This document shows positions 1-25,122 of a stretch of DNA of 35,205 bases, piece by piece. The stretch's first letter is position 1; every line of letters begins with the position of its first letter. Location of the stretch: positions 1 to 35,205 of the forward strand of contig RBNJ01000259.1 of NCBI GenBank assembly GCA_003990765.1, read 5' to 3'. The position numbers and the translations under genes were made by a program. Source of the stretch: Jimgerdemannia flammicorona (taxonomy: Eukaryota). The notes beneath the pieces were generated by a model that did not search any database, was not told where the DNA came from, and worked only from the letters and a program-made list of their open reading frames with translations.

Positions 1-110
1 TTTTTTTATAGTCACTCAGACTTTGCTATTTATTATTAATCTATCACATATAATTACATTATTCCCTCACACTACTCAATATCTCTAGAGAGCCTTCTCC
101 ATACTTTTAT
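1..110 (-). mobile_element. 3' end of LINE copy B (poly(A) tail, 3' UTR, last codons of ORF2), separated from the rest of B by insertion of copy A
   Basis: Minus strand reads AATAAATAGCAAAGTCTGAGTGACTATAAAAAAA, the same terminal motif as copies A, C and F. 97-110 (CTCCATACTTTTAT) matches 4208-4221 (CCCCACACTCTTAT) except for three C/T differences. Confidence 0.75.
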
Positions 111-186
111 TTTTTTTATAGTCTCTTGGACTCCTTTCTTTATTAATATGTCCATCTATCTTATATATCATATATTGAGCCTATCT

Positions 187-3100
187 CTATCTAATCTCTC
201 TAGGGGGCCCCCTTCCCTCCACCCCTTCATGATTAAAGATCACTAGGCCATTAACCATCACTACTTGCCCCCTACTTTGCTTACAGATTCCTTCTACCAA
301 ATGGTGATAATACCCACTCTGGAGACTCTAACTCACCCATCACTTTGTCAGTAAATCTCCCACCAACCCCTCCCATTATAACAGCTTCCTCTGCAGACCC
401 AGCTGTTGCTCCTCCTCAAAAACAAAGAGCCAATGTCCAGTCAGCCCTACCTATATAGCTAAAACCCACTCTACAGTGAGTCACTCATTGTCTATACCTC
501 TTACCAACTTAGTTCTCAAATTATCTCATTGATCTCTCTCCTTAACCAATCTCCTTCTAACCTTCAACTATTTACCAACTACTAATCAAAAGTCTCCCAG
601 AACCTCACACTCACTCAGCCAATGTTCTGGTATCTGTACAAATCCCCCAACTTGTCTCACATTATAATACTCCTCATATTCTAATTGTCTACCGTCTACC
701 AGATATCTAGTATAGAAATTCAACATGATATTCCTTGTAGCATCCACCACCATACTACCCAGAACTTGAGAGGGAGCCACCTATACACCTCAGCACTCTA
801 TGACTAGACTCCTGCTTAGTCCTACTCTTTATCAATTTTTACTACTTGCTAACTATTAGGCTAAAGATCCTGACCCAATCCCCTCTGATACTCCACTCCA
901 TCACTAATATCAAACTCAATAAGTAGAGCACCCTTCAATAGTAGTCTGTTCTACCTCTATATAGCTAGCCTCCACAGTATCTCTCCTTTATTGCTCTGCC
1001 AGCACAAACCTATATGGTGGGCTCCATTAGCTACTCTCTACCAGAAGCCTTTATATCTTAACTGATAGCTTTTACCCAGATTCACCAGAGACAGCAAATC
1101 CCCTGAGAACCCTCTTGAGGAGAATCTCATCTCCCACATCTTCTATATCAGTGGCACTCATCTCTCTCCCTGCAGTTCAATAGTCTACTTCAGCCACTAA
1201 GCTCTTAGACAGTATAGCTACTTAGGAAAATCTACCAGTCTAAGCCCCTCTCCAAATCACCAGTATTGAAAGGGTATCCCAACTGATCTGAGACTGCCTC
1301 CCAGCCTAAATCTAATCCTTAGCCAGCTTCATCAGTCTCTTCACAATCCAAGCTAGAAAGTCCAAGTAATATACAATATACCATAGCTTAGGGAATCAGT
1401 AAATATTCAGAATTGACACCCAGCCTGCCAGGGAGATGTGTTGACCTCTCCAACTTTAAAGAGCCTCTCCCTAGATAGCCACCCTCCTCTTTCACTATAC
1501 TTACAGTAAGACAGATCCATAGACTGAGAGGAAGATGTCTAGGTACTGCATGGTCTCTCCTGTAGAGACAATTGTTTCAATGACATCTCCTCCCACTAGC
1601 CCATTTCCCAACACCATTGTCTCATACTTATATCAGTTGAGTTTCACCCCAGAATATGCCTCAAACCATTCCACTGTTTTCTTAAGTACCTCAATATCCA
1701 CTACTGACCCAAGTCCAACTACTATATCATCTGCAAAGGCCCCCACCCTCTACACTATATTATAGATAGAGAGCCCTGCCATCTTCTATCAAATTCTATC
1801 CATCAAAGGCTCTAAAGAAAGGGTATATAAAATAGAGGACAGTGGATCTCCCTAAGGAACTCTTCTCTCTAAGGGAAATGCTAGACTCTGATAACCATTA
1901 TACATCAGTGCTACCCTACTGCCCTCCAACAGATTCAATATAGAAACTCAAAATCATGATGGAATACCAATTCTGTCTAGCACCTTATCCAGCCACACCT
2001 GCCAAATACAGTCATAGGCCTTCTCCTGGTTCAGAAATACTAGCCTCCCATCCAATCCACTAGTCTAGATCTCTTTAATGATATTATGGACCCAAGCTAT
2101 CCTATTACTGATAAGTCTGCCTCTAACAAAGCCCCACTACTTCTCCTCCAGCACCTATTGGACAACTTTCTGTAGTCTCACTATGATCACTTTCATAACC
2201 ATCTTCTAGTTTATGTCCAGAAGCATGATTAGTCACTAGTTCTTCCAGTCCTCTCTCCTTCTCTTGTCCTTATACAGTAGGGCCACCAGCCTCAGATCCT
2301 GCCCTACAACCCACTCACTATTTAGAAGAATAAGATTACATAGGGCTACTATTTCTCCTAATACTCCAGGGACTCTCACCATCTTCTTCCAAAAGTCCCA
2401 AGATAGTCCATCCTCTCCTGGTGCTATTCCAAGCTTACTTGTCACAAGTACTCTCTGGATCTCCTCCTTCTTAACTGGTAGGATCAAATCCCCCAGGCTC
2501 TTGACCTGTGACAGTTCCCAATCCTCCAGAGTGTCTCCAATTATCTCTGCATTAGCACCCCTCTCCTCCTTGCTTCACAGACCCCTCTACCTCTTCTTCA
2601 GCAATCCTAAGATCTATTATATACTATGTACCATTTCCTCCTCTACATCAAGGACTCCATCCCATCACTGCCATACCCTTTTTGCTCAAAGTAGTCTTGA
2701 CAAGTACCTAGTAGGCCTTTCACCCTTCTTAAGTCTCTGCTACCTCAGCCTAGCTGCCATTCCTTTTATATACATCTCCTCCTCCTCTCTTAACATCTGT
2801 TATAATTCTACCACCTCCATCCTAGCTCTCACCAACCTCCAATCATCCACCTCTCCAGAGTTTATTACATCTGCCTATTCTATCTATAATCTAACTAACT
2901 GATTTGAAGCACACCTCACCCTTTTTCTTCTCTACCTCTCAGAATTCCTTCCAGTATCCCCCCAGTAGACCCTTGCAGCCTCTTTTAACCTTATCCACTG
3001 AATATCTACTGGTACACCCTCTTGGATCTAGCTTGCAATCTTTCCCTGGATGTCCTCCACTCATGAGTCCCATAATACCTTCTCAGTTAGCAGAGAGGAG

Positions 3101-3813
3101 TTAAGGTGCTAATGTCTGGATTCATCTCCACTCCCCCCAAACCAAGGGCACCACTCTATCTCCAGAGACTGCCAAACATCCATACCCCAGCATTTAGCTG
3201 TCAGGATCCAGTCAATCCTTATTCCTAAGCTATTCACTTAGTATGTATAGATCCTCTTTTCTCCCCACTTTGTTCTGTCCATATCTTCCAAAGAGCTAAG
3301 GTTCTCTACCTCCTCCTATATGTCCAGGCCACCACTCCTTCCACTAGCACTCCTTCCTCCATCAGTTCTATCTAACTGAGAGTTTCATACCATATTAAAG
3401 TCACTATTCAGAATATCTACCCTATCCTCCAAGAAAGTATCCTCCTCTAAGAGCTCCTTAATCCAAGCAATTCTCTCATCCCTAGCTATTAGACAGTAGT
3501 AAGAACCAACTCTCACTGGCTCTCACCCAGGTTGATGCTATTCCCCCCATACCAAATGGTCTCTCTAGTTCCTGATTCCTCCAAGATTCTCTTTACTACT
3601 CTATACCAAAATCACTACTTTGCCAATCCAAGCTACAGCACCTCTCCATTCTCTAGTCTACTCTACTTAATCCACATCATTCTCATACCATACATCTTAT
3701 AGTAGAAAGAGATCAGTCTCTAATCCCTTAAGCTAAGTGAAAATGTTCTTATACTGCCCAGAACTCTATAGTCTATTTACATTAAGAGAGAAAATATTGG
3801 TTGTACTGTTCAT
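187..3813 (-). pseudogene. ORF2 of LINE A (APE endonuclease, reverse transcriptase, CCHC finger), many premature stops
   Basis: Starts MNSTTNIFSLNVN at 3813. Contains APGEDGLSWDFWKKM, LVFLNQEKAYD, GDPLSSILYTLSLEPL, VGAFADD and PEHWLSECEVL, and ends GPPREIR* at about 187. Confidence 0.88.
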
Positions 3814-3851
3814 TGGGAATAATGTTTAGAAGAAAGGTCTCTATACTTCCA

Positions 3852-4207
3852 CTACTGCTCCACCTCCATCTACTCCTGTGCCAAGTCCAAGATATATTCT
3901 GCAGCCTGCTCTTTCTCCTCAACTCTCCTTGCCTCTAATCCCCCCAGGAGCTCATTCAGTTCCCCCTCCTCTCTCTTCTCAAAATCCTCATGATACTCCT
4001 GGCAGGCATCCTGTCAGAGCTGCAGACCATGATACTCTGTTCAACAGTAGGTCACTTACTCATCTGCCACTATAGCCAGCTCAGTCTTTCTCTCTTCATT
4101 AATCTCATATCCCTCCTTCTCCAGAAAAACTGTAAGTACTTCTGCCTTCAATACCTCTACCACTCCATCATTATGCAGGACCCTCACCCATTGCTCATCA
4201 CTCATCA
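3852..4207 (-). pseudogene. C-terminal fragment of LINE A ORF1
   Basis: Homologous to the 31173-31646 ORF (VMSDEQW..., LELWQDACQEYHEDFEK); stop at 3852-3854. Confidence 0.8.
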
Positions 4208-4494
4208 CCCCACACTCTTATGCTTGAAAGCCACCCTGCCACCCACTACTCCAACTCTCCTCTCACTCTGCCTATAGATTTTCTCCACTAAATAGTACTG
4301 CTGACCCCCCTGCAGACTCCATCCCAACCACCAGCCTATCAAGATGTTCTCCATCAACTCTTCTTATCTTACCAATCACTTCCCCAAACTCAAATACTTT
4401 CCTTCCTTAAACACAAACTACCAGTGACCTCTAGTCCTACCTATACTACTAATATCTATCCCAAAGTCAGCCACTTCCTCCCCATCCCTCCTAC
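4208..4494 (-). mobile_element. LINE copy B, ORF2 C-terminal segment between copy A and the hAT element
   Basis: Minus strand encodes GMGRKWLTLG-like sequence homologous to GIGKEWLTLGW of copy E and continues seamlessly at 10871 after the hAT TSD. Confidence 0.8.
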
Positions 4495-4509
4495 TAGTGC
4501 TCCAAACGA
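4495..4509 (+). repeat. Left terminal inverted repeat of hAT element
   Basis: 13/15 match to the reverse complement of 10856-10870. Both mismatches are CG>CA, implying ancestral TAGTGCTCCGAACGA. Confidence 0.92.
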
Positions 4510-4517
4510 ATGGAGTT

Positions 4518-4712
4518 GATCTGGATGAGATTTGATTCAGATTCATCATGTGATAGATTCGAATCAACTTGGATTAGTCTTGTGATCTGATCTGGATTGA
4601 TCCATCTAGATGATCCATCCAGATGATCCATCTGGATTGACCCATCCAGATGATCTATCCAGATTGATCCATCCAGATTGACCCATCTGGATTGATCCAT
4701 CCAGATTGAAAT
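4518..4712. repeat. Left subterminal repeats of hAT (CCATCCAGATTG / CCATCTGGATTG units)
   Basis: About 10 short imperfect 13-14 bp units directly inside the TIR; CA/TG variants imply ancestral CCATCCGGAT. Confidence 0.85.
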
Positions 4713-4910
4713 CTTTAGTGATGTCACTCTTTCTTTTGTTCATTTTGCTCTTGTTTTTTTTTTTCTGCTACACTTTGGTGACATCACCCTTTCCTTTGTT
4801 CCCTCTCTTTTCTTTGTTCTTTTTCTTTATTCTTTCCTGCTGCATCACGAGCAAACAAAACAGCAGCCCTTAATTCGTATATTGGTCCAGTCTACTCATT
4901 TTTCACCCTG

Positions 4911-6949
4911 CAATAATTGTCAAAAGAGGGAGTATTCGAGGTGGAAATGCACTCTCTACTGAAAATGTTAGATTCTTTCTCATATGGATAGCATACAAGC
5001 TGCTCATCGAGAGCCAAAGAGGTGACGGTGGTGGTGGTGGTGATAGCGATGGCGGGGATGAGGGAGAATTCTGGTAACAACTCACGGCAGCCCTTCAGAC
5101 CTCGGAATTCACAGACCTTACAGCTATATACATGGCAGCCTTTTTGGAGCAGCCGATAGTAGATGTAGGTTGCTCACTCGGCTGCTACTTGTTTACTTGT
5201 GTTTATTTAAACTTCCCCAGCATGACCCAATTCACCTTGTGCTTTTCTTAGAGTCTACAGCTCTATGGTGAGATCTGCCAACTTTATTCACAACATCTGG
5301 TCAAGATGAAGAAAGGCTGGCAGACGTTGCAGGGTATGCCTTTGGTGGCTGAGCTATTGAGTTAATGTATCATGTGGTGGAGGTCTCAAAAGAAACAGAA
5401 GCAAGCCTTCATGAGCAATTCTTGTGCAACTCATGTAACTTGTCAGCATGCAACTCATCAGCATGCAGCTCACTCACTCACACTCTTTTTCTGAAATACC
5501 CATCTCCGTGTTTTATTTAATTTCATTTTTACGTGGTCTCCCTCTAAAAAACACCCACACTTGCATGCAACCCACATGCAACCCATCTGCACACAACCTG
5601 CCCACCCACACACAACCTGCCCACATGCAACCTGCCCACATGCAACCCATCTACATACTTATCTCGGTCCCTCAGATTAGGGCTCAGTTCCATTGGAAAG
5701 GAGAGTTCAAAGTTACCCAAGTTCAACTATGTCTGGTGTCTGATCAAATAGAGAAATTCGAGGGCAAGATGTTCAGCATGAGCAGTACCAGCATTGTCAT
5801 CAAGGCTTGGGGGTCTATATTCGAATCAGAGCCAATCATACTCAACCAAGGGGTCCATTGGTCAGCAGGAGTAACCAATGATGAAGAGAACCATATCTTT
5901 ATTAATGAATGCAAGAGGTGGTTATGATAGTGGTAAGGAATCTCTATGGTGACAAGCTTCACCACCACATCAACAAGATTTGTGAGGATTGCATCAAATA
6001 TTGGGTTGCAGGAAAGAGGGGGCGAAAAAAGCAAGGAGAGGGGGTTTGGATGGGAATTGGGTACATATACTGCAATACTGGCAAAGGGTGGGTTCTGGAG
6101 TTCCAAAATCCCCTGCACTCATCTCCCTTTTTTTTTAACCCCTCCCCAGATAAATCACACTCTTTGCTGATATACTCTTTTTGATACAATTCCAGGGATA
6201 CACAAGATTCTATACTCCTACCAGAACTTTAGAAGTGCCATCGAAGAGTAAACTGCATGCAAGCATGACACAGCCTGTGCAGCGATGGCAGCTATGATCT
6301 GGGGTTCTTTGAGCAGATTGATAGAGCATATGGCAGGCCAGCTTGGTGGTGATATCGGCACGGCTGTATGTACATTCTTAGCACAATTTAGCATGCTGTA
6401 TGAGGTGAGGAGCTCTGCTTTTTTGGGGTGCTGCAGCCCAGGGGGTTTCTGTGGTCCAGGGGGTTTCTGCCCCCCTGAATGCAAAAAGGACTGACTGGTT
6501 GCCATCCATTTTGGCAGGTTTCCAAGCCGGGGCTCCCAGGGCTGAACCAAGGGCAGGTATCTACCAGCACAGCCTGGCAGTATGAGATCCTGGGCCAAGG
6601 GTTCACCCAACTGTACACTCACATCACATCAGGATATGTCGGGCGCAACCTTTCTCTGCCCATACACACAGACAACAACATCACCCTGATAATGTTTTAC
6701 ATTCCGGAAAGGAAGGGCCCAATCTGGGAGGATAGCAGCAGAGTCTGGTATGACCTTACCTATGGTTTCAGAGTCCCATTTGTGGCCAACATGGCCATCC
6801 TATTCCAACCACATGACCACTATGGCACTATCGCCTTCAAGGAGAGCTCGGACACAATAGTTGTTGTACTCACAATGGATGACAGGCTCATCAAGGCCTG
6901 AGACTGGTAGGTGGAGCAGTTTTTGTGAGGGTTAGGCAATCTTTCGTAA
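4911..6949 (+). pseudogene. Spliced cargo gene of the hAT element; C-terminal putative TET/JBP-like 2OG-Fe(II) dioxygenase domain
   Basis: Frame-preserving introns at 5165-5220 (GT-AG), 5401-5675 (GC-AG), about 6088-6195 and 6405-6517 (GT-AG with CTGAC branch). Last exon: YTHITSGYVGRNLSLPIHTDNNITLIMFYIP...YDLTYGFRVPFVANMAILFQPHDHYGT. HxD at 6665-6673, distal His at 6818-6823. Internal stops are all explicable as C>T/G>A. Start and true stop (6901 or 6949) are uncertain. Confidence 0.6.
5557..5652. repeat. Short tandem repeats (CACATGCAACCTGCC-like) inside a predicted intron of the cargo gene
   Basis: Several imperfect 11-15 bp units, e.g. CCCACATGCAACCTG repeated at about 5620-5650. Confidence 0.7.
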
Positions 6950-7195
6950 GGGTTAGGCAGCCATTTTGTGTGGGTTGGGCAGTCTTATGTGGGGGGGTTG
7001 GGCTAGGCACCTCTTATGTAGCACTAGCTTAGCCGTTATGCAGGGCCCTACTGGCCCCTCAGCTCTGCTCTGTAGTGCTGCCAGTGCAGCGCTGTGGCAC
7101 AGGGCCAGAGTGCTCATGGGACCTGAACCGGTGACTTCGACCACTGGAAATGCCCTCCGACTGCCAGAAGCACCCTCTACCCCAGACTCCTTGGT

Positions 7196-7680
7196 GGCTT
7201 GGGGCTGCCCCTATGCCACTGGTGGAGGGCCGCAAATTTTGCATACTCCCTCCACCTGCCCCACCTATCCCAGACACTTGTGGCTTGGGGCAGCCCCTTG
7301 CTGCCAGCAGAGGGCCACAAATTTTTGCGTGCTCCCTCCATCGACCCCGTGCCTGCCAACCAATCCCACCCACTGACCCGGGTACTGACAGCTTGGGGCT
7401 GCTCCTCACTGCTGGCGGAGGGCCACAAATTTTGCACACTCCCTCTGCCTACCCCCCCAACCCAGATACTTGCAGCTTGGGGCTGCCCCTTGCTGCCAGC
7501 AGAGGGCCACAAATTTTGTGCACTCCCTCCACTGACCTGCCCACTGACCTGCCCACCGACCTGCCCACCGATCCGCCCACCGATCCACCCACCGACCCGC
7601 CCATTGACCCAGGCACTGGCAGCTTGGGGCTGCCCCTTGCTGCTGGCTGAGGACTGCAAATATTGCATGCTCCCTCTGCC
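7196..7680. repeat. Array of five ~57-bp GC-rich palindromic units with variable C-rich spacers
   Basis: GCTTGGGGCTGCCCC...GAGGGCCACAAATTTTG...CTCCCTC begins at about 7197, 7283, 7391, 7475 and 7622. A 12-bp CCACYGACCYGC tandem expands the fourth spacer (about 7529-7610). Confidence 0.9.
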
Positions 7681-7789
7681 ACCACTGCCAACCCTGCCCC
7701 ACTTTGGCTGCAAACTCTGGGCTGAGTCCTCAGGTTTTTTTTTCCTTTTTTATTATTTTGAAAGGTATTAAATATTCCACAAGGCCAAC

Positions 7790-10384
7790 CAACTTATCCA
7801 TGGACCTGCCAAATTTTAGCAGCCCGAGCCCCACTAAGACTTCAGACACATACATGCCCAGATTGTCTCAGCATTCAGTGCACACCTCTTTGGGGCAATG
7901 AGGTCCACCCCACCTGAGAACACCCGCTCGATGAGAGTACTAGAGGCAGGAATCACCAGATAGTCCCAAGCCATACCACACAGGCTGGGGAAGTCTGTTT
8001 GATACAGCTGCATGCCCCAGTGGGTAGAGTAGTGGTTAGATTGGTGGGTTAAATTGGCCCAATGCTTGCCTGACAACCCACCTTCCACCAGTTGAGCACC
8101 TCTGTGTCCTCCAGCAGGACCACGCAGTCGCTGGTAAGGTAAATGGTAAGTTCATCTATTGACGGCAGCTCTTCCACTGATGGCTCCCTCTTCCTCTTTC
8201 TACCAAAGTAAATGTGGATCCCTCGACATATTTGTCTGGACTTCAGCCAGAACCTTTCAGCGGTGTGTAGTTTTTCTGATACACTTCAATTACAGCCTGC
8301 TTGGTTCTCTCAATGAAGTGCTGCTCCCAGCCCTGATCTTTATGATATTGTAGCTTTAAGCATGGGTCCAGCACTGTTTGAAGAAAAGGAGAGTGAGTTT
8401 TTGTGGAGTTTTCTCTATTTTGGAAGGGGCAACAGCCACATACCAACATCGACATACCTATACTGATTGAGTATATGGTGGTATCTGTTTGGAAGTAGTA
8501 TTTTCTAAGCTTACTTAGAGCAACCTCTATGGTGTCTCTCTGATCCGGGCTTAACCGTAAATCACCGCAACCCTCCAGCCTATTCTCGAGCTTGTCCTCT
8601 AGCCAGTCAATCAGAAGGTTGTATACTGGTATTGCAGAGCTTATTGTTGGGGTCGTTTGTTTGACTATATCGTTCATACAATCATCGAAACACTGGCAGT
8701 TATATGTGGTGAGGTGTTGCATTGTGCAGAGGCAGACAAAACGAGTGTGGAGCCAGGGCAATTACCACTTACTTCCAAAACTCTGACAATATTCCTAAGT
8801 ACATCCCACTTGCTTTCATCTAGAGCCTCGGCCCATATTTCCTTGTCGGCAGCCATTGTTGAATCTATTGGCTTTTTTTTTTTTTAAAAAATAAATCTTC
8901 TATCATCCAAAACAGTTGCTTCAGCTGACTGAAGAAAAAAAGGATACATACCACAGCAAACTCCAGCGCATACTGGATCATTGCAAATGTTGAGTTCCAA
9001 TGCATACAGACATCCAATATAAGCTCTTTCGGGGCTAAACTGATTGCCCTATACTGCACAGTAAATTTGTCTTATCATTGTGGAGACGATCAGACCAACA
9101 CAACCAGTTTGCACAGCTTGGAAATTATACTCAGGGCCCCTCCTCTCTCGGATGTTTTGTCTATGTGCATAAGATAGTCCTGATTAGCGAGGTTCAGTAC
9201 GTGGGCCTGGCATCACACACAGTAGCTTTCTGCACTGAAGGCCATGTTTTCCTGTTTGAGGCTAGCTGCTAAACTTGGAAAAATGTTGAGTTATTTGTGG
9301 CATTGTCTATTGTAATGGCCAAAATCTGTATTTGAAATATTTGGTTAACAAATTTATGTGAAAATAAGTAACCAATAAAATCTGGTTTGGTTTAGGACCT
9401 CCCTCAAAATGCCAACCTGATGGCAAGCCCCCCTTTTTTACCTTGGTGGTGATCTCAAGCTCCTGGATACAACTAATAAAAGCATCTGTGATGTTGTCTC
9501 TAGAATGAGGGCTAGTAAGTTTGATGAAGTCAAGGGTGAGAGATTTAAGCTACCAATCGAGGTCAATCCAATAACCAGTAATGCCCAGAAATGAAATTGC
9601 ATTGGGGGATATCCATGTGTCGATCGTAAATAAAATTTTGCCTGCCGAATTCTGCTTATTGAATGTGAGGTTAAATTGGTGAGCTCTTTTATATAATTCA
9701 GCTTGCAAAGGTCATGGTGCTGCCCTTATTTTACCTGAAGTGTCTGGCGGAGATTGTCATGCTCCTTCTTATAGGCCTCCAGGACATCTTTGTGAATAGT
9801 ATCAGCACTTGGCAAATATAAATCATACTTGAGGAGGCCAAAGATGCTATGCAATTGATCACTCTTGATAGTTGTGAATAGCTGGTCTGTGCACACAATC
9901 CAGCAAATGAGCTGATTTCGAAATTCTGCTGAAGAGTATGGCTAAATATTTTTGATTAAATGGCATTGTTGGTACAGAAATGGTCAGGCAATTGGATAAA
10001 CATACCTACCACAGCTTGGATGTCAATTTTATTTGTCTCCATGTTCTTTTTGATTTTGTCAGAGTGCTTGTCTTTTATGTGTCGATTCATGTTCAAAGTT
10101 GTACCCCCAAGTATTTTGAACTTCTGGCTGGTGCAGTTTATGGGGGTGGATGAAACAATATCATGTGTGTGTCAAAACAATATCATGTGTGTGTCAAAAC
10201 AAAGTGTCAATAGGTGCATCTTAATTTTTTATCTGCAATAATTACAAACAACATTATCTCCTATCTTAGCACAATGTTGCCAGATTTCGGAGCAAGGATT
10301 GCATGGAAGGTGTGGAACTATCAGGGATGTTTGACTTGAAGCATCATCAGTACTGTGAACTGTTGAAGACTGATCTGTCGACAT
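7790..10384 (-). pseudogene. hAT transposase (BED zinc finger, DDE RNase H-like core, hATC dimerisation domain), intron-containing and disrupted
   Basis: SEIWQHCAKIGDNVVCNYC / GGTTLNMNRHIKDKH (BED); FTIDTWISPNAISFLGITGYWID; ILAITIDNATNN; ELILDVCMHWNSTFAMI; VLDPCLKLQY; VLNWWK|LYQTDFPSLCGMAWDYLVIPASSTLIERVFSGG...CMCLKS. Ends are approximate. Confidence 0.93.
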
Positions 10385-10463
10385 GTGTGTTTGCATGTTT
10401 GCATGTGCATGTGTATGTGTGTGTGTGTTGTGTTGTGGACACATCCAGCATATGAGTCATGTG

Positions 10464-10850
10464 GAGGATTTGGATTGGAGGATTTGGTTGAAGGATTCAG
10501 ATGAGGATTCAGATTGAAGGATTCGAATTGGAGGATTCGAATTGGAGAATTCAAATTGGAGGATTCAAATTGGAGGATTTGAATTAAGTGATTCAGATTG
10601 AGTGATTCAGATTGGGGTGGTTTGGATGGATGATTCGGATGGGTGATTTGGATGGGGTGATTTGGATGGGGCGATTCGGATTGAGTGATTCAGATTGAGT
10701 GATTCGGATTGGGGTGGTTCGGATGGGTGATTTGGATGGGGCGATTTGGATGGGGCAATTCGGATTAAATCTGAGTTGATTCAGATGGCTTTGGATTTGA
10801 GATTCGAATCAAACTGTTATGTGACAAATCGAATCCGGATTTGATTCGAA
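10464..10850. repeat. Right subterminal repeats of hAT (GATTCGGATTG / GATTCAGATTG / TTTGGATGGG units)
   Basis: More than 20 short imperfect units upstream of the transposase start, related in inverted orientation to the left subterminal motif. Confidence 0.88.
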
Positions 10851-10855
10851 TTGAC

Positions 10856-10870
10856 TTGTTCGGAGCACTA
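10856..10870 (-). repeat. Right terminal inverted repeat of hAT element
   Basis: TTGTTCGGAGCACTA, followed directly by the TSD copy CCTTCTAC. Confidence 0.92.
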
Positions 10871-13800
10871 CCTTCTACTAATCTATCTCTCAGATTCTCC
10901 CATCAACCCCAATCTCTATCCCCTCTATATATAGTACCCAACTTATTCCCAACTACTAACCAAAAGTCTCCAAGTACCTCACACTTCTCTAGCCAATGTT
11001 TTGATATCTGTACAAACCCCCCTTCCTGTCCTATATTAAGCACTTCTCACAATCAAAGTCCCCTCTCTCTACAAGGTGGCCTGAGCAAAAGTTAAGTATA
11101 ATATTCCTCTACAGTATGTACTACTAAACCACTCAGTACTTGGGTGGCAACTATTGTCTTATCACTACACTCTAGGCCCAGATTCTATTCCAGTCCCACT
11201 CCTCTCCAATTCTGGCCATCTGCCAGCTACTAGGCTATATATTCTATCCTATCTCCCTCTGGTACTCTATCTCATTACCAATATCAAAGTCTATGAGAGG
11301 GGTACCCCTCAGCAATACTCAATCTCATCTTTATATTACTGGACCCCAAGGTACTGCTCCTTTATCTCTCTGTCAGCGAATCTCAATATGGTGAGCCCCA
11401 TCTACTACTCTCTATTAGAAGCTCTTATATCTCATTCACTCCCTATTAGGAAGCCCAACTAAGGACAGCAAATCTCCAGTCACTTCTCTTAGTGAGCACT
11501 GTATCTCCCAGACAATCTTTATCAAGGAAACTCAACTACCCCCCCTCAGTTCTACTGCTCTCTTCAGCCACTATGCTTACAGATAATGTAGCCTCTTTGG
11601 GAATAAGGCCCCCTCTAGCCACTAGTAATGATAAGATTTCCCAGCTAATCTGACTCCTCTACTTAGCCCAGATCTAATTTTTTATCAGCTTCAATAGCCT
11701 CTTTACCACCCAGACTGAAAAGTTCAGATGATATATCAGATACTACAACTTTGGTAGTTAGTAAACATTCAAAATAGTAATGTGCTCCACCAAAGATATG
11801 TGTCAGCCTCCCCAATCTCTCAGAACCTCCCCCTAGATAGCTACTCATTGCTCTCACCAAGTATGTATCAGAACTGACTCATATACAGAGAGATAAATAC
11901 CCAAGTATCTCACTGCCTCTCTAGCAGGGATAATTGTTCCAATGACATTCCCTCCCACCAGACCATTATCTAATACTATTATTTCACACTTATACTAGTT
12001 ACGTTTAGCCCCAGAGTATGTCTCATACTACTCCACTATTTCCTGGAGTTCCTTGATATCAGCAATCAACCCCAGACCAACTACCATATTATCTGCAAAG
12101 GCTCCAACCTTCCAAACAATGCCAAAGATAGAGAGCCCCCCTATCTTCCACCAAATCTTATCCATCAATAGCTCTAAGGATAGAGTATATAAAATCAGAG
12201 ACAGGGGGAGTCTTCCTGGAATATGCTCCTCTCTAGGGAGAATACCACCCCTCTATGTCTATTGTATATAAGCACTACTTAACTCCTTTTCAGTAGGCTG
12301 ATCATTATCACTTGAAACTGCTGAGAGATATCAATCCTGTCCAGAACCTCCATCAGCCAGACTCACTGCACACAGTCATAGACTTTTTCTTGATCCAAGA
12401 AGACCAGCCTCCCATCTAGCCCACAGGCTCAAGCCCCTTCAATAATGCCATGCACCCAGGCTATACTATCTCTTATGAGCTGACTCCCTACAAACCCTTG
12501 CTACTCCTCACCCAAAACTTGCTGGGCCACCTTCTGCAGCCTTGTCACCACTACCTTTATGAGCAACTTCCTATCCATGTCCAGAAGCATGATGGGCCAC
12601 CAATTCTTCCAGTTCTCTCTTCTACTCTTATCCTTGTAAAGTAGTACCACTAGCCCCAGATCTTACTCCCCCACTCACCTCCCTGACTGTAGTACTAAAT
12701 CACATATCACTATCATCTCTCTCAGTACCCCAGATACTTCCAGCATCTTCTTCCAAAAGTCTCAGGGCAGCCCATTCTCACCAGATGCTGTACCTAGTAT
12801 AGTTATGGCAAGAATCTGACAAATCTCCTCCTTCTGAACTGGCATTACCAAACCATCCAGCCCATCCACTTATAGTGAGTGTCAATTCTCCAAAGTATGC
12901 ACAATAGTAGCAGCCATTGTCCCATCCTCTTCCTCACTCCACAAACCACTCCACCTCTTCTTGAGCAAGCTCAGAATGTCCTGTGTACTATGTACCAGTA
13001 GTCCATCTGAATTCAGCACCTCCTCCCACCTCTGCCTCACCCTCCTTGCCTGCAGGATCCTCAAAAGGTGTTTAGATGGCCTCTCTCCCTCCTCAAGTCC
13101 CTGCCAGTATAATCAGGTAGCCAAACTCTGTATCTGTATCTCCTCCTCTTCTCTCAACACCTGTTGTAGCTCATTAACCACTATCCTAGCCTAGCTCAAC
13201 TGCCAGTCCTCTACCCCCTCCAGAGCCAAAAAATCAGCCCAATTCTTCAAAAGTCAAGCCAGTCTAGCAGAAGCCCAGTTCACTCTCCTTCTCCTCTATC
13301 TGTCTATTATATCTCTTGCCTCTCTCCAATAAACCCTAGCAGCCCCCTTCAATCTTACCCACTGAATACTGATTGTGACCCCCTCTTGTACTCAACTCTC
13401 TACTCTCTGCTGAATGTCCTCTGCCCACTTGTCCCACAATGTCTTCTCAGCTAACAAAGAGGAATTTAGGCATCAATGTCCAGGCCCATCTTCACTTCTC
13501 CCAAAATGTCCCTATCCCAACAGCCCCCAATGATCAGACTACAGACACTACTCAGCCTCTAGTGACTTCCAAACATCCAGCCCTCAACAATCTACTGTTA
13601 GCACCCCAGTTGATCCTTATCTCCAGACCATTCACCTAGTGTATATATACTTGTCTGTCTCCCCAGAATCTCCTTCCAGTATCTACCAGAGAGTCCAGTC
13701 TTTCCACATTACCAGGCTCCTACTTCTACCCTCAGCACCCCTCCCTCTATCAGTCCTATCTATCTATACATCCCTGATCATATTAAAGTCCTCTTCAAGA

Positions 13801-14631
13801 ATATTCACTCCAGCCTCTGTGAGGACCCCACTTTCTCTAAGATCCTCTACTCACTCCATCTGCTCACCCTGCACAGTAGGGCAGTAGCATGAATTCATGG
13901 TAACTAGCTCTCAACTAGGTCAACACCACTCTCCCTACACTAGCTGGTCCCCCCAGCCCTCTATATTCTGTATCTCTCCTTTGCCTCTCTGAATCAAAAT
14001 TCCAACCTTGCCCTTCCACACTACCACACCTCTCCATTCCCTTGTCCACTCCATTCTATCCAAGTCATCCTCACATCTGACACCCTGTAATAAAAAGAGA
14101 TCAGTCTCCAATCCCTTCATCAAAGTAAAAATATTCTATCTCTGCACCAATCCCTACAATCTATTCATATTCATAGAGAAAATATTTGTTGTACTATTTA
14201 TAAGAGATAATATTAAGTGTTATACTCTTCCTCTACAAATCCACATCCATTCTTTTCTATACTAAGTTCAAGTTATTTTCTGCAGCCAATCTCTTCTCTT
14301 CAGCTATCTTAGCCTCCAATCCAACCAGAAGTTCAGCCATTGCACCATTCTTCTTTTTCTCAAAGTCCTCTTAATACTCCAGGCAGACCTTCTGCCAGAG
14401 CTGTAATCTATAATGCTCTGCCCAACAGAAGGCAGCCCTCTCACCAGCAACAACTGCCAGCTCAGCCTCCCTCTCCTTATTAATCTCATATCCTTCTTTC
14501 TCTAGGTAAATTGCAAATATCTCCACCTTTAGCACCTCCACCACTCTATCACTATATAGAATCTTTATCCAATACTCATCACTCATTACTCTCAGATCTA
14601 CTTTGCCCAACTCTTTAGCCATGAAGTTGTT
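10871..14631 (-). mobile_element. LINE copy B, main part: degenerate ORF2 (start at about 14201) and ORF1 C-terminus (14233-14631)
   Basis: Contains VGAFADNMVVGLG, LVFLDQEKVYD, INSTTNIFSMN and NNFMAKELGKVDLRVMSDE, collinear with copy E. Confidence 0.88.
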
Positions 14632-14708
14632 TTTTTTTTTTATAGTCACTTGGACTTCTCTTTATTATCTCAATCTATAATAATAATACAATATCAATCC
14701 ACACCCCC

Positions 14709-17700
14709 TCAGTCGATACCCCTCAGATCCCCTTCTCTACTTTCCCACTCTCTCTATCAGATGATAACTCAGTCACCCACCATCCAAACCCTTTCTCCAC
14801 TTTTCTGGCAAATACTATTCACCAAACTCTGGCAGCTCTCCCCATCTGATCCCCACTCTCTCCACCAGCCATTCAAAATATCCAGTAATAATCATTTCCA
14901 ACATACCACTCTAACCCCAACCCCAACCTGTTGGCTCTCCTTGAATACATGTAGCCAATATCTGGCCAACCTAATCCAAATAGCCAAAGCCCAACCCAGG
15001 GTCAGCTATTCATCTCCTACCCCTCCTACCAGCCTTTGGCATAGCTCTCCCCATCTCCCCCCTTCCCCTCCCACCAAGGCTTACAGTCCTAACTGGTCTG
15101 CAATGTGGTGCCAAAACTCCCCTAAAACATCACACTTGCTAAGCCAATGTTCAGGTATTTGTACCACTCCCCCTTCCTGCCCATTTCCAGACATTCCTTA
15201 CACTCAAATGTATCTTCTGTCACCAAGTGTCCAGACTGATAATTCAACATCACATTCTACCTTAAAAACTGCCACTACACTACTCAGAACTTGGGGGGAA
15301 GCTACCACATCACCTGCTTGCTCTAAGGCCAAAGACCATTCTAGTCTCACTCCTCACCAATCCCCACCCTCTGCTACACTTCCAGCCACAGATCCCCCCC
15401 TAAGCCCCACAAATACTCCAATCCATCACTAAGCTGGAAATCCTCCACCAAAGTACCTCCCAGCAGTAGCCTATCTCATCTTCACATCTATGGGCCCCAA
15501 TATTCCTCTCCCTCATCACTCTGCCACCGAAGTTCAATTCACTTAGCACCATCTACCACTCCCTACCAAAAGCCCTTATACCACATCCTCTTGCTCTCAT
15601 CCAGGGCCACCATTGCAAGCAGATTGCCAGATGCTCCTTGGGGGAGAATACTGAGCCTCCCACACCCACTGCATGAGTGGTACCCACTCCTGGTCCCTTA
15701 ACTTACTCACCCTCTTCAGCCACCATGTTCTCAAGCAATGAAGGCATTTGGTAAAGTCCACCAAGCCTAGTCTGCCTCTGTCCACAAGTAGGGTCAGAAC
15801 CTCCCATCCTATCTGACTTTGCTGCCCAGTACAGATCCACAATCTTGTCATCTTCAGAAGTTGCCTGATCACCCATGTTGAGAAGTCCAGATGATACCCC
15901 ACATACCATAGCTTTGGCAGCCAATATATATTCAGCACCATCACTCTTCCTGCCAAGGATATATACTGACCATCCTACCATAGAAGCACATCACCTCATA
16001 TTAGAAGTTACTGTTCCCACTAAGCCTGGGGCAGGAGAGACCCATATACTAAGAAGTATATCTCCAGGTAACAAACAGGATTCCCTGCTGATACCACCAT
16101 TCCAATCATATCACTACCAACTATTCCACTACCTAGCACCAGAGTCTCATATTTATGCCAATTGAGTCTAGCACTGGAACCCCTCTCATACCATTCTATA
16201 GTCCACCTTAATTCCTCCACATCTGCCAATGAACTCAGGCTAACTACTATATCATCAGCAAAGGCCCCCACTTTCCAATTAATCTCCAGAATGTCCAAAC
16301 CCCTAATTTGATGCCTAATCCTATCCAATAGGAGCTCTAAGGAAAGGACATATAAGATGGGTAACAAAGGATCACCTTGTGGCATCCCCTGACCAAGTGG
16401 AAAGGACACACCCCTATGTCTATTGACTACCAATGCTGCCTAACTGTTTTCCAAAAGACCAATCAATGACCTCCTAAACCCTGGAGGAATACCCACCCAT
16501 TTCAGCACCCCCTCTAACCAGGTCCTCCTCACTCTGTCATATGCCTTCTCCTGATCCAGAAATACTAATCTGCCATCAACCCTGGTAGCCTGGGTCCCTT
16601 CAATCACTCCATAGACCCAGGTCATCCCATCTCAGATCAACCAACCACCAACAAACCTCTTTGCTCGACTCTCAGTACTTGCTGAGCAATTACCTACAGT
16701 CTAGTCACCAAGACCTTTGTCACTAGCTTGCAGTCTATGTTGAGGAGCATGATTGGTTACCAGTTCTTCCAATCTTCTCTTCTTCCCTTATCCTTAAAGA
16801 GCAAGGAGACCAGCCCAAGGTGCTGGCCTCCAATTCAAGATCCAGACTGAAGAATCTCATTGTACATCACTGTTAACTCCTCCAATACTACCTCTACCCT
16901 GGCCATCTTTTTTCAAAAATCTCAGAGAAGCCTATCCTCTCTTGAAGCTGTCCTCTTGTTTGTCGAAGCCAGAACCTTACAAATTTCCTCCCCCCTCACT
17001 GGGTCCCCCAGAGTCCCCAGGCCCATTACTGGGTCTGAATGCCAGTCTTCCAACTGCCTTTCAATATTTGAGGCATCTGCACTCCCATCTTCCTCACTCT
17101 ATAGATCCTCCCAGTAGGATCTAAGCAATCCCAGAATTACCAAAGTCCCCACCACCATCTCTCTATCCTTATCCAAGAGATCATCCCACTACTGTTTAGT
17201 TCTCTGTACTCATAGTATATATGATAAAAACCTTGTGGGTCATTCTCCCTCCTCCAACCCTTACCACCTCAGCCTCACCACCATCCCCCTCAGCTTAACC
17301 TCTTTCTCCAATAATATCACTTCCTTAAGCTCTTTAACTTCCTTTCGAATCCACACAATATGCCAGTCAGCTATCTCCCAATCCTCTAATACCTCTGCCT
17401 ATCTCCCCAGGAGTGCTGCCATTCTCTGTGAAGCCCAAAGTACTCTCTGCTACTGCTGAATGCTCCTTCCTTTCCCTGCCTCTCCTGAGCACTTAATTTC
17501 AACCTCTGCTAGTGATCTCCAATTATCTGGCCCTGCTTCCACCACCTAACAATTTTCCCAATAATCTCCACCTCCCAGTCTGCCCATAAAGCACTGTCCT
17601 CCAATAAAGAGGAATTCAGTCACCAATGTCCAGGCCCATCCCCATTTCCCCCAAACCTTTCCCCCCCTAGCAGCCCCCAGTGGTCTGACCATGAGCACTA

Positions 17701-18362
17701 AATCACCTCCAGCATAGTCCAGACATCTGCTCCCCAGCACTCTGCCATCAATATCCAGTCAATCCTGGAACCCAGCCCTGCCACCCAGTAAGTATAAATT
17801 TGATGCTCTCTCTAGAACTATCACTCTGAATCAACCAAAGAACCCAACCTCTCCATCTCTATCCAATCATCCAATCTGCTACTTTTGCTCCTCATTCCTC
17901 TCTCCTGCTATCAGTCCTGTCCATCACATTATCTCTGACCATATTGAAATCCCCCCCCAGGCAGTCAATCCCTGCCTCACCCATAACACTGACCTCTCTC
18001 AAATTTCTGATCCAATCTATCCTTTCCCCCCTCTCTGCTGGACAATAATATGATCCAACTGTCAAAGGACTACATCCAGGCCTCTTCTACACTCTCTATA
18101 CCAACTGACTCCCCCAATGTCCAATGTCACCAATGTCCCCCATCCCCTTTTGAATTAGGATACCCACCTACCCAAACCACACTGCTGCCCCCCCCCACTC
18201 TCTAGTCCAACCCTGTAAGTCCACATCTACCTTATAGCACACATTCTGCAGTAAGAAGAGATCTGCATCCAATCTCTTGAGCTAACCAAATATAAACCTT
18301 CACTGAGCTGCCCCCCTCAACCTATTCACATTCAAAGAGAATATTCTAGTTATACTATTCAT
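14709..18362 (-). pseudogene. ORF2 of LINE C (endonuclease, RT, C-terminal finger)
   Basis: MNSITRIFSLNVNRL start; RLVFLDQEKAYDRV; GMPQGDPLLPILYVLSLE; KVGAFADD; VLNIYWLPKLWY; many stops. Confidence 0.9.
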
Positions 18363-18393
18363 ATTGAATAATGTTTGAATTTGAGAACCCAGC

Positions 18394-20313
18394 CTAGTAT
18401 TCCATGCTCATCTCATCTCCAGCCAGATCCAATCACTGCTCTGCTTTTAGATCACCTTCCACTACAGTCTGAGTATCTAATGTCTCCAAGATCTCCTGAT
18501 ATTCTATCCTATCCACAACCTCTATCTCAGCCTGATAATCTGCACAGACTGCTCTCTACTTCTCTAAGCCCTTTCTTGAATTCTATAAGTATACCGCTTG
18601 ATTATTCACAATCTCTCAAAGTTTCTCCTCCTGCTGATCAGCTACTTGATACTCAACCAATTCCAAGAGTACTGCTAGAATCTCATTCCTAACCTTCCTC
18701 AGTATCTCCTCACCATGAAGAATCTCCTCCCAATGCCTATCTTCCATAACCCAGAAGTTCTCTCCCCCTAACTACTCTGCTGCCATCCCCTCTAGCATCT
18801 TCCACAGCCACTTCTCCTCATCCACTGCCTTAGCAATACTCTGGGTGACCCTCTCAACCTCCATTACTGGATCCACCAGAGCACTCCTCCTCACTGATTC
18901 ATCCCACTCCTCTTCAGACACATCCAGCAATTCCTCCTCACCCCCAGCCCCACCTGGCATGCTATACTGAGGTTGTCCTCTCTTGCTCATTTCCACATCT
19001 GCCTCCATGCCCCCCTGTCCCTCCTTACTCAGTCCCCCCTAAGACCCACCTTGGGCCATCCTGTACTCTCCAGCCCAGGCACTCTCCTACAGTCCTGCAT
19101 CACCTTTTCCTATACCACTATCAGCCCCACCATCTCCCAACTTCTTTAGCAGCTCCTTCTGGATTTGCCTTCCCTACATCTTCTCCCAGATAGTCCAGTC
19201 CATCCTGATCCTCTTGCCATCCACCACTTCCATCACCATCTTGGCATCATACTCCTTCTAAGCCAATCTCCTTCTCTCAACTGCTCCTGCCAGATTCTCA
19301 AGAGCCTCCAGCAAATCCTCCTCCTCTTCTTGCATCCCTTTCACCCACAAGACCTTGCACTCCACCTGACCCCACTTGAGAGTTGCTAGCCAGTCTCTTG
19401 TCTTCCCTATATTCTCCTTTCCAGCCAGCCTCATCTGAATGTTGATGTCTCCAGTCTAGAACTTGGTACCCTCCCAGACTCTGAACCCAATGTCCACTAT
19501 GTCCCCATACTCCTTGACCACTTCCACAATTAACTCTCTGGCCCTCTCCCTCAACACTATAGGAAGATTCAGCACTGTCAACTGCACCACTCAGGGGTCT
19601 CAGCACATGCACCTGGTCATAAGAACTACTACTTCACCCACTATTATCCCCTTCTCCATAGCTGCTAACAATGACTCCTCTTTCTCAAACCCGACCTCAA
19701 TCCCTTCCTTCTCCTTCAAGAACTTCACCAATACTGCCCTTTTCATCTCCTGCACCACCAGCCCCAAGATCATCCTTATGGTCACTGCCAAGCCCTAGAA
19801 ATATAGTGTGATAGTGAATTCTGACCTTGATTTCTTGAGTAATGGCACCACTACCAAATCCATTACACCATCTGCCAGGTCTCCAGGCCTCATGCCCCCC
19901 CTCTGTTCTAAACTGCCAACCACTGTCACATCTGGATTTTTTTCCAGATCTCCAGTTACAGCTCTATCAGTAGTCACATCTCCAGCCCCTACTCCCCCCC
20001 CTCTCCTATTGTCCAACCCTCCCAAGGGGGCCCCTTTCTGTCCCCCAACAGTAGCCATTGAAGACTTCTCTAGGTTCAGCCAACTATCTAGCCCAGATGC
20101 CATTCTCCCCATCTTGACCTTATCCACAAAGGTCATCCTCTCCTCTCCTCATTGCCTCAATCCTCCTCTTCTCCTGCCACCAGCACCACAGCCCACTATA
20201 GAAGACCCCAGCATTTCCAAACCATCACTGCTCTTCCTCTCTACATGCTGCCAGTCAAAGGCACTACTGTTCCCCTGGCCAACATGCTCACTAGTATGAT
20301 CATTGCTATCTAT
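18394..20313 (-). pseudogene. ORF1 of LINE C
   Basis: Fragments 19795-20136, 19600-19791 and 18772-19008 are homologous to ORF1 of copy E (DLEKNPDVT, GDLADGV, VKFLKEKEGIEVGFE). Confidence 0.85.
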
Positions 20314-20411
20314 ATTATTAGTTGCCTTCTATCAAAAATATTGCAGAAAGTGTTATTGAAGTCTTGTATCACCTGAATGTTACTGGTGAAAGATGTAGCC
20401 ATGAAGTTGTT

Positions 20412-21397
20412 CATCTTCTGGCACACCCATAGCAGATTTCCCACTTCCTTCCCCCCTGGGGTCACTGGTCTTCCTGTACCCAGCATTGAGGTATCTGCTC
20501 CTATACTCACCCCTTCTCTGGAACATCCACCAGTTCATCCTCACTAACTGCTACCACCTGTCCCCCTTTCACTATCTCAGGTACTCCAAAGTATACTCAC
20601 TAGGCACCATGTATTGGTACATCCTCCACTATCTGACCCCTTATAACTAGACCCCACCTAATAAGAGAGAGAGTATCCTCTCAGACTTTGAATATATTAT
20701 TGACATATAAGTCATTACTCAGTATCTTCCCTGCCTCATTCAGACCCTTATCCACATCCCCTCTATTCTTACTGGTCCAAATACTTGCTTAGGTACCCCC
20801 AGACCCCTCAACTCTACCAGCATCCTTCACTGTCCTTTCTTCCAGACCTGCCAACAACTCTCTCTGCCTCTTGTACCCTTGAGACCTCTCTCACAGTCTC
20901 TTCTCAATATGGACTCATTTCCCATCCATAATATCTAAATGCATTGACTCTATATATATCTTCTAAGCCTTTACCCTCTACTCTACAGCTCTACTCATCT
21001 TCTCCAACACCTCTAACAAATCCTCCTCCCCCTTCTCATTCCCCTTTACCCTCATCACCTTGTACATGAAGGCCCCCTACATCATTACTATTGACCAATC
21101 ATGAGTCTTCCTAGTAGTCTCTCTCTCTGCTAGCTAAAGCTAAACATTAACATCTCCTGTCCTAAATGAGATTCCTTTTTAGACTTAAAAGCCAACATCA
21201 ATCACCTTGCCATACTCAGTCCATTCTTCTCCTCATCTCCATAGCAGTCACTATGGGCACTTCTTTCACCAGAAGTTGCACTACTCTGGGGTCCTATCTC
21301 AAGTATCATGTCATTGGAACATATACCTCCCCAATAGCAAACTCTGCCCTCAGGACTACTTCCAATGGCTCAGCCTCCTTAAAGCCCACCTCTACCC
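20412..21397 (-). mobile_element. LINE copy B, 5' part of ORF1; 5'-truncated where it abuts the Gypsy remnant
   Basis: GRPVTPGGKEVGNLLWVCQKMNNFMA joins NNFMAKELG at 14631 across copy C; homology stops at GVEVGFKEAEPLE (about 21397). Confidence 0.85.
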
Positions 21398-22716: not shown

Positions 22717-24047
22717 GATACTTCTTGAGTTAGTTTCAGTGAATAGTAGTAAGGATGATTGTGCCTGAGAGTTTTTGTAGCCAAAAGGTGGTCCCTTTTA
22801 TATCTTGTACAAAGTAAGGTCCTTCTCACTTAGGCTCCAGTTTTTATGACCATGAAGCTTCTACCATGTTCCAATACATCAGGACTTTGTCTCCTATCTT
22901 GATAATCTCCAGGAGTTTATAAATCTTTTCCATATTATTCCACTATAGTGTCTGTGTCTTGTTTATATGTATAATCCTCAGCCTTCTTCCTGATTTGGTG
23001 TAGTTTCTATATCTCCAAGTCCATGTATTTCCATATAGTATCTCTATTGGATGATAGAGTTCCTTGAGAACTTTCTTCTCCAAATAGCATTTCTCAAGAG
23101 GTAAAGTGGGTACTTTGTGATCAGATATCCCAGAAGCAGATAATGCTATTGGCAGATAGTGATCCCAGTTTTTGTAGTTATTGCAGATCTTTGTATTAAC
23201 ATTCTTAAGAGTCTTGTTGGTCCTTTCTGCTTGTCCATTTCCTTGAGAATGATAGGCTGTGGTCTGAATATACTGGATCTTATACTTCTTGTAGAGAACC
23301 TTAAAGAACTGGTTCACAAATTCTGTCTCTCTGTCTGTGGTTACCTATATTGGGGTCTTGAATCAGCAGATGATTTCTTTGTAAAAGAAATTAGTGATTG
23401 ACTGTACATTGGCTTCTTTGTGGGGTCCTGCCTCTATTTATTTTGTGAAGAGGTCTACAATGACAATGATATATCAGTTTCCAGTCAGAGTCAAGAGTAG
23501 AGAGTCAATTACATTCATTACAATATGGACAAATAGTGCTGGTTCTATATATACTAATTCTGAGGCTTGATTTCATTGGTCTTGTTTCTGTTTCTGATAT
23601 TTGTCACAGGTCTTGACAAATTGTCTGATATCTTCCTCTATTCCTGGCCACCATATTGTTCTTCTTGCTTTATTGTATGTATTGATTCCTCCTAGATAGC
23701 TAAGTTTATGTACTGATTTCATTGCTTGCTCCTTCTTATATTCTGGTATGACTAGTAGTTTTCCTTTCTTCAGTGTTTCTCTATCAGTTTCGAATTGTTT
23801 CCATGTTCTGTTGATAATTATTTGTGTCCATTCTTTTAGATATTGGGGTATCTTTCACTATCCCAGGTATGTGATGATTCCATAGTAGAGCTTTTTATTT
23901 ATTATTGATTTATTGGTTGGGGGTCCTTCAGAGTATCTGTGAGAGAGTATCTATATTAGCATTGGTTCTTTCTGGGTGGTGCACAATGGTTACATCATAG
24001 GCTTGCAACTTCATGATCTATCTGGCATAGATTTCCTTAGATTGCCG
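22697..24047 (-). pseudogene. Gypsy pol fragment: RNase H C-terminus, integrase zinc-binding region, DDE core, GPY/F motif
   Basis: YAR*IMKLQAYDVTIVHHP; WWPGIEEDIRQFVKTCDKYQ; YIIVIVDLFTK; VTTDRETEFVN; TTAYHSQGNGQAERTNKTLK; KLEPK*EGPYFV; stop at 22697-22699. Confidence 0.92.
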
Positions 24048-24128
24048 ACCTTTCTCCTGTACAATTCACATTACACCAACTTCAAGCAATGGTTTTTCAA
24101 CACAACTCAGAGAAAAGGTATTATAAAA

Positions 24129-25064: not shown

Positions 25065-25122
<58 letters not shown>

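Follow-up and report, generated by a model that had tools for sequence, protein, structure and literature searches.

The original description of the TET/JBP dioxygenase genes that accompany Kyakuja-Dileera-Zisupton (KDZ) and Plavaka transposons in Basidiomycota is reportedly that of Iyer and colleagues in 2014. These multi-copy genes, linked to DNA transposons, include CcTET of Coprinopsis cinerea, whose product oxidises 5-methylcytosine (5mC), and also 6-methyladenine (6mA), in vitro (summarised in Kojima 2025, Biology 14:1741, PMC12730594). The same report describes twenty TET-bearing (TET+) families of hAT transposons in six Puccinia species, named hAT7 for their 7-bp target-site duplications, in which the cargo is of the PU type and, in three described families, lies upstream of the transposase gene in the same orientation; such enzymes are proposed there to counter methylation-based silencing and C-to-T hypermutation. 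A further type, PE, was recognised only by HHpred, at an E value of 1.4 to CMD1, and by the similarity of its predicted structure to CMD1, NgTET and CcTET (PMC12730594). The locus analysed here lies at positions 4495-10870 of a 35,205-nt stretch of DNA from Jimgerdemannia flammicorona (contig RBNJ01000259.1, assembly GCA_003990765.1), called the window below, where a hAT transposon carries, convergent with its transposase gene, a spliced cargo gene whose product is probably a very divergent Fe(II)/2-oxoglutarate (2OG) dioxygenase related to the TET/JBP enzymes.

The interval 4495-10870 is one decayed, non-autonomous member of an Ac-like hAT DNA transposon family that is present in many copies and duplicates 8 bp of its target. 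This anatomy, combined with the dioxygenase identity and the anti-silencing role proposed below for the cargo, makes up an explanation that we regard, taken as a whole, as reasonably probable. The features that delimit the element and its transposase are the following.

4487-4494, no strand assigned: left target-site duplication CCTCCTAC, 7 of 8 bases equal to 10871-10878
4495-4507, plus strand: left terminal inverted repeat TAGTGCTCCAAAC, pairing with 10858-10870
4595-4709, no strand assigned: left subterminal repeats, about eight copies of the 14-nt unit GATTGATCCATCCA
7834-10456, minus strand: hAT transposase gene in several exons, with the dimerisation domain at the C-terminus (7834-8151)
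10462-10765, no strand assigned: right subterminal repeats, 14-nt units of the GGATTCGGAT/GATTCAGAT type
10858-10870, minus strand: right terminal inverted repeat, TAGTGCTCCGAAC on the minus strand, pairing with TAGTGCTCCAAAC
10871-10878, no strand assigned: right target-site duplication CCTTCTAC, 7 of 8 bases equal to CCTCCTAC

The terminal inverted repeats are 13 nt long, with TAGTGCTCCAAAC agreeing with the reverse complement of 10858-10870 (TAGTGCTCCGAAC) at 12 of 13 bases, and the flanks agree as 8-mers (7/8) and not as 7-mers. Taken alone, the end pattern is weak evidence, because it has two matches in the window when up to two mismatches are allowed and 28 of 100 shuffles also reach two or more. 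The ends were also judged by metagenome contigs from four soil runs (X1-X4) of two studies, in the form of Logan contigs aligned to 4000-11400. In X1, 2274 contigs aligned (280 at 99 % identity or above, 667 at 95-99 %, 930 at 90-95 % and 397 below 90 %), with 119, 187 and 39 contigs aligned in X2, X3 and X4, respectively. Contig depth, a sum that does not stand for copy number, was 84-365 in every X1 bin inside the element (4494 to 10915), compared to 8-14 in the two bins of the left flank and 6 and 42 in the two bins of the right flank. It rises at the left end from 8-14 to 153-365 at bin 4494, and drops at the right end, after bin 10669-10915, from 283 to 6 at bin 10916. Moreover, contigs diverge from the window exactly at 4495 in X2 and at 4493 in X3. 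These depth steps and divergence points confirm the ends of the element independently of the window. An empty site was also sought inside the window, where both flanks match non-adjacent parts of other copies of an element resembling a long interspersed nuclear element (LINE).

Of the 13 open reading frames (ORFs) scanned, that at 7834-8151 on the minus strand alone exceeded a Pfam cut-off, matching the hAT dimerisation domain (Dimer_Tnp_hAT, PF05699) at an E value of 1.3e-9 and 38.2 bits against a cut-off of 21.4. The minus-strand ORFs upstream of it carry recognisable hAT motifs by eye (FTIDTWIS, AITIDNATNN, CQAHVLNL and ERVFS), and gave no Pfam match for a BED zinc finger or an RNase-H-like DDE core. 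Thus the ends, the flanks and the transposase domain bear out the claim of a first-pass annotation of this DNA that the element is a hAT transposon with terminal inverted repeats and an 8-bp target-site duplication. The 8-bp duplication, the short inverted ends starting with TAG, the subterminal repeats and the C-terminal dimerisation domain are all shared with Ac/Tam3-like hAT elements. In contrast to the present element, classical hAT elements encode the transposase alone.

Compared to the TET+ hAT7 families of Puccinia, the element is alike in that a hAT transposon carries a (here probable) TET/JBP-type dioxygenase gene beside its transposase gene, and in that the genome around it is fungus-like and subjects methylated repeats to mutation (PMC12730594). 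The first-pass annotation knew of no such linkage for hAT elements, but its novelty claim fails, because the linkage and the anti-silencing idea are both in print in that report, which was the only match found when the literature was searched for JBP dioxygenases in fungal hAT transposons. The two systems differ in several respects. The hAT7 elements make 7-bp duplications and the window element one of 8 bp; the start of the hAT7-1_PGr consensus differs from the start of the window element, and TAGTGCTCC begins no entry of its Table S1/Data S1, as judged by comparison of the entry starts; the two genes have the same orientation in the hAT7 families described and are convergent here; and by eye the window protein looks more like the PE sequences of the report than the PU sequences. 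What is new is therefore a combination: a hAT lineage with an 8-bp target-site duplication, an HxD dioxygenase clade that is invisible to Pfam, and a relative with similar ends in a genome of 34 % GC.

Evidence that the cargo is a genuine gene comes from its relatives. A search with the last exon (P0001, 6509-6898) among 1.84 billion representatives gave four matches at E <=0.001, with identities of 73, 47, 33 and 27 %, the last being a full-length protein of 374 aa (P0005); the four carry neither a name nor a Pfam domain. Three word-indexed homologue searches added one protein (P0020) only, and the profile search among them is no evidence of absence because it missed known relatives. In a metagenome scan, two of the 23 stretches that matched a search pattern were confirmed (the contigs L001 and L002), and in a scan of viral contigs none of 30. 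P0005 is collinear with three plus-strand exons (5915-6067, 6195-6404 and 6533-6814), its residues 111-161 matching 5915-6067 at a tblastn E value of 1.9e-5 and its residues 167-227 matching the middle exon at 0.008, and the homologue in L001 and L002 has two introns at the same places as the window gene. In both the window and L001, one intron lies within the Gly codon before [MI]H and the other, in phase 0, before ..P.LP.L[DN], and a block RG[KR] further upstream is common to the window, P0005, P0020 and L001. Because of the collinearity of P0005 and the shared intron positions, the cargo is taken to be a genuine spliced gene family, in which the gene has at least three exons and a product of about 370 aa. 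A second spliced gene on the plus strand, convergent with the transposase gene, had already been proposed, and the exons and shared intron sites support it. The parts of the gene in this copy, and the spacer that separates it from the transposase gene, are as follows.

Near 5280-5332, plus strand: possible further 5' cargo exon (tentative, by eye)
5676-6087, plus strand: cargo exon for the N-terminal part, up to the KRGRKKQGEG...GIGY block (tblastn with P0005, tblastx with L001)
6088-6195, plus strand: first cargo intron, within a Gly codon, at the site used in L001 (by eye)
6196-6404, plus strand: middle cargo exon, with an in-frame TAA at 6249-6251
6405-6517, plus strand: second cargo intron, GT..AG, phase 0, at the site used in L001
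6518-6934, plus strand: last cargo exon, with HxD at 6665-6673
6957-7771, no strand assigned: GC-rich (60 %), repeat-bearing spacer between the convergent genes

The phase of the first intron fits only if one G in the run 6086-6088 is an insertion. For the middle exon the frame reading GYTRFYTP... was rejected, as it offers no usable splice sites and loses the match to the relatives. Tandem repeats of 15 nt (CATGCAACTCATCAG, CCCACATGCAACCTG) at 5432-5650 probably belong to the first intron or to the 5' region of the cargo gene. The spacer at 6957-7771 consists of repeated units with GGGCCACAAATTTTG...CTCCCTCC, plus a 12-mer array of CCACCGACCCGC, and the number of units varies among metagenome copies, where joints skip 100-165 bases or go back 160-264.

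The two peptides to which the first-pass annotation drew attention, TSGYVGRNLSLPIHTDNN and YDLTYGFRVPFVANMAILFQPHDHYGT, are present as quoted in the plus-strand frame 6479-6901, and the HxD...H arrangement that it saw there is indeed kept among the relatives of the cargo, though with two corrections. Its count of about 51-52 residues fits the 51 from His53 to His104, but His104 is a copy-specific neighbour of the conserved column, which is residue 105: His in seven of seven aligned relatives and Tyr in the window (TAT, 6821-6823). Likewise, the H-G-T that it reported reads H-Y-G-T in this copy (HDHYGT), and the pattern is found in the closest relative (HDLHGT). In an alignment of eight rows the first His is kept in 8/8, the Asp in 7/8 and the distal His in 7/8, the window being the exception for the last, and all eight rows read H-x-D or H-x-N. 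HxD and the distal His are among the best-kept columns across the relatives. The triad of this copy is broken, because of the Tyr at the conserved distal His.

The cargo is probably a TET/JBP-like Fe(II)/2OG dioxygenase, as the first-pass annotation had suggested, if a very divergent one. Apart from the triad, this assignment draws on protein language-model neighbours and on a comparison by eye with the PE-type proteins; profile and PDB sequence searches gave it no match. In the ESM Atlas the cluster nearest to P0005 (similarity 0.96, 209/256 features) is from Basidiomycota and carries PF20515, 2OG-FeII_Oxy_6, on 15 % of its members; the cluster at rank 3 (0.95) is from Mucoromycota, and that at rank 11 (0.91) carries Tet_JBP on 16 % of members. 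These neighbours, together with the soil origin of the metagenome runs that contain the family, point to a soil fungus as host. A literature search for PF20515 or 2OG-FeII_Oxy_6 by name found nothing.

Like the cargo, the PE proteins are transposon-borne, very divergent, and barely or not detectable by sequence profiles, and five blocks in the PE sequences of Table S1 (PMC12730594) are collinear with the window family by eye, a comparison that carries no statistic. One ungapped block reads GG-F-[FY]....[HY]G[VIF]....., then N/D....., then HG[TS], and within the stretch from GG to HG[TS] a Pezizales PE sequence shares 12 of 32 residues with P0005 when aligned by eye; SAG and GLS..T..RL blocks also correspond, again by eye. 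The hallmark of the PE type is HxE, however, whereas the window family has HxD; nor does the account of PE enzymes in that report include a hAT carrier. The closest described relatives of the cargo thus appear to be the transposon-borne fungal TET/JBP-like enzymes, with the PE type nearest despite the HxD of the window family. The KDZ- and Plavaka-associated genes differ in other ways: their transposases belong to another superfamily, and the AG-type proteins are recognisable as TET/JBP (PMC12730594), whereas the window protein has no Pfam match.

Several results weigh against the assignment and against the wider account of the element. Pfam gave no related match at E <=1 for four cargo exons of the window and the four relatives, and at E <=10 only unrelated sub-threshold rows for P0005, P0020 and six ORFs of L001; Tet_JBP (PF12851), a profile that the first-pass annotation had suggested, and 2OG-FeII_Oxy_6 (PF20515) were both without a match. 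PHROGs and NCBIfam searches with eight proteins returned nothing relevant at E <=10, and neither the exon nor a family profile matched any PDB sequence at E <=10. AlphaFold2 models reached a mean predicted local distance difference test score (pLDDT) of 35.5 for P0005, from 8 alignment rows, and 36.2 for P0020, from 12 rows that included exon fragments, too low for either model to inform on the fold. The Atlas recognition values, 2153 and 2142, fall below the 2300 reached by most known families, so that the Atlas scores are weak evidence and serve as leads, and the named Pfam families are found on just 15-16 % of cluster members. A C-terminal Arg able to bind 2-oxoglutarate is not conserved in the branch of L001 and P0004, and the absence of the HxE hallmark and the by-eye nature of the PE comparison count on the same side. 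With respect to the element as a whole, this copy is unable to make either protein, and no listed contig joins cargo to transposase in another copy.

The alternative that survives best, which we nevertheless consider rather unlikely, is that the cargo belongs to a different branch of the 2OG-Fe(II) oxygenases, for instance as a hydroxylase of proteins or small molecules or as an AlkB-like repair enzyme, with a target other than methylated DNA bases; the transposon would then keep it for a reason unrelated to methylation. An HxD...H motif with a spacing of about 50 residues is generic to the 2OG oxygenase superfamily, and the Atlas clusters nearest to the last exon alone (0.92) carry 2OG-FeII_Oxy_3 and not Tet_JBP, to which may be added the failure of Pfam to match either TET/JBP-related family. 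The best Atlas clusters of the full-length relative, however, are fungal, and the Pfam names on them are 2OG-FeII_Oxy_6 and Tet_JBP, and its C-terminal half can be aligned by eye, block for block, with the PE-type transposon proteins, which are themselves placed beside CMD1, NgTET and CcTET by predicted structure (PMC12730594). Furthermore, TET/JBP enzymes are the only 2OG oxygenases that the report presents as transposon cargo.

A second alternative, which seems improbable, places the cargo outside the superfamily altogether, as an accessory transposon protein of some other fold in which the conserved His, Asp and His have another role. The lack of support for an oxygenase from the profile, PDB and fold searches and models, together with the low Atlas recognition values, would fit such a protein. 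Against it, two independent Atlas queries fall in the 2OG-Fe(II) clan, and HxD and the distal His are among the best-kept positions across relatives that are merely 27-47 % identical. A divergent TET/JBP-like dioxygenase therefore remains the reading that is followed below.

Membership of the cargo in the repeat family is supported by the metagenome contigs. In X1, 13-17 contigs cover the cargo sites 6545 and 6562, compared to 12-22 at the transposase sites 8672, 9573, 9632 and 10007; contigs lie on the last cargo exon in all four runs, and thus in both studies, and no joint skips the cargo among the joints listed. The cargo is accordingly a standing part of the transposon repeat family and no isolated capture.

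A second line of evidence comes from L001 and L002, which have a GC content of 34 % and share 99 % identity over 2717 nt; L002, about 1 % different from L001, has two in-frame stops in the gene. At its end L001 has GATTTGA-type repeats in an array and, after them, TTGACTCGTTGGAAGC, which agrees with the right end of the window element, TTGACTTGTTCGGAGC, at 13 of 16 bases and is oriented alike, a match found anywhere in 5 of 200 shuffles of L001. The roughly 3.7 kb of L001 seen has no similarity to the window transposase, and neither L001 nor L002 showed a left end, which the contigs may be too short to include. Together, the homologue and the similar end suggest that in a genome quite unlike this one the hAT lineage is again accompanied by the enzyme, which may sit there in a derivative that lacks the transposase. 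Downstream of the dioxygenase-like gene, in L001 (1957-3500) and in L002, there are two further ORFs (2320-2601 and 2661-2945, 93-94 aa) that have no Pfam match and no similarity to the window element; they are shared by the two contigs where L002 reaches, and are therefore part of that repeat.

That the cargo is instead a fragment of a host gene, taken up by this copy in a single event and now in neutral decay, is highly improbable: the three in-frame stops, the frameshift and the lost His of this copy would suit it, but many diverged contigs cover the cargo in four runs at depths like those of the rest of the element, contrary to the restriction to this copy that the first-pass annotation had named as its own refuting case, a 34 % GC genome has a homologue with identically placed introns beside an end resembling that of the element, and the transposase gene here is no less damaged, so that the decay affects the whole copy.

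A broader proposal, which we put forward tentatively and hold to be on balance doubtful, is that transposon-borne TET/JBP-like dioxygenases include a fourth clade, to which the cargo would belong, with HxD and invisible to Pfam, that has spread with one hAT lineage over distant soil fungi, from a genome of 46 % GC to one of 34 % GC, and possibly beyond the three fungal classes in which such elements are known, and of which the 34 % GC derivative would keep the dioxygenase near a similar end, with no transposase on 3.7 kb.

Judged by its reading frames, this copy is dead and makes neither protein. In the cargo gene the frame changes near 5907-5909, and besides the stop in the middle exon there are a TGA at 6899-6901 and a TAG at 6908-6910, both at positions that are Trp in the closest relative; the transposase has an in-frame TAG at 9550-9552, within ...GYWIDLDW*LKSL... 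The stops in both genes, the frameshift and the Tyr at the conserved His speak against the activity of this copy that a self-encoded anti-methylation system would imply. Comparison of the copy with X1 contigs gave a great excess of transitions (A>G 219, T>C 246, C>T 155 and G>A 143) over transversions (2-13 per class). At 32 sites the window has A/T where the other copies mostly have G/C, 12 of them in CpG and 16 in CpA context in the window reading; the 32 were drawn from the 40 best-supported sites listed, after eight were dropped (5718, 7705, 7847, 8164, 8672, 9246, 9368 and 9390). The observed/expected ratio of CpG is 0.29 in the element, where TpG and CpA stand at 1.37 and 1.44, and 0.01-0.02 in the flanking retroelement remains, and repeats eroded at cytosines, as the first-pass annotation described them, are thus a real feature of this genome.

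The flanks (1-4494, 10871-21000 and 24000-35205) are LINE-like retroelement remains, with a reverse transcriptase domain (RVT_1, 105 bits) in the ORF at 33129-34469. The LINE-like sequence is extremely asymmetric between strands, with a GC skew of about -0.4 to -0.55 where it lies antisense and +0.35 to +0.5 where it lies sense, and its CpG observed/expected ratio is 0.01-0.02 in older copies and 0.19 in a more intact one. The sense strand is C-poor even in the LINE-like copy with long open frames, and this strand asymmetry looks like more than symmetric CpG decay. Between 21000 and 24000 there is an AT-rich block (GC 0.34-0.37), and a minus-strand ORF at 22943-23344 reads like a retroelement integrase core (...TAYHSQGNGQAERTNKTLK...), with no Pfam match at E <=0.01.

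For active copies of the transposon, we infer an enzyme with a double-stranded beta-helix fold and TET/JBP kinship that would oxidise 5mC or another modified base in DNA. Such oxidation would blunt the host CpG methylation and deamination that are seen on repeats, and blunted methylation would in turn favour expression and survival of the element. A transposon with its own enzyme of the DNA-demethylation type would be a direct counter to silencing by host methylation. Because the phenomenon has been published for fungi, hAT elements included, the finding opens no new category. If the reading is correct, however, it would add a canonical hAT lineage with an 8-bp target-site duplication as a carrier, along with a clade of enzymes overlooked by standard domain searches, so that such cargo is probably under-counted in genome annotation; it would also hint at an old pairing of the enzyme with this hAT lineage across very different genomes. 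The cargo of the present copy appears to have been killed in part by transitions of the kind seen across the element, as the His-to-Tyr change is one C-to-T and the two Trp-to-stop changes are G-to-A, and the window would thus show the arms race between host and transposon in one view.

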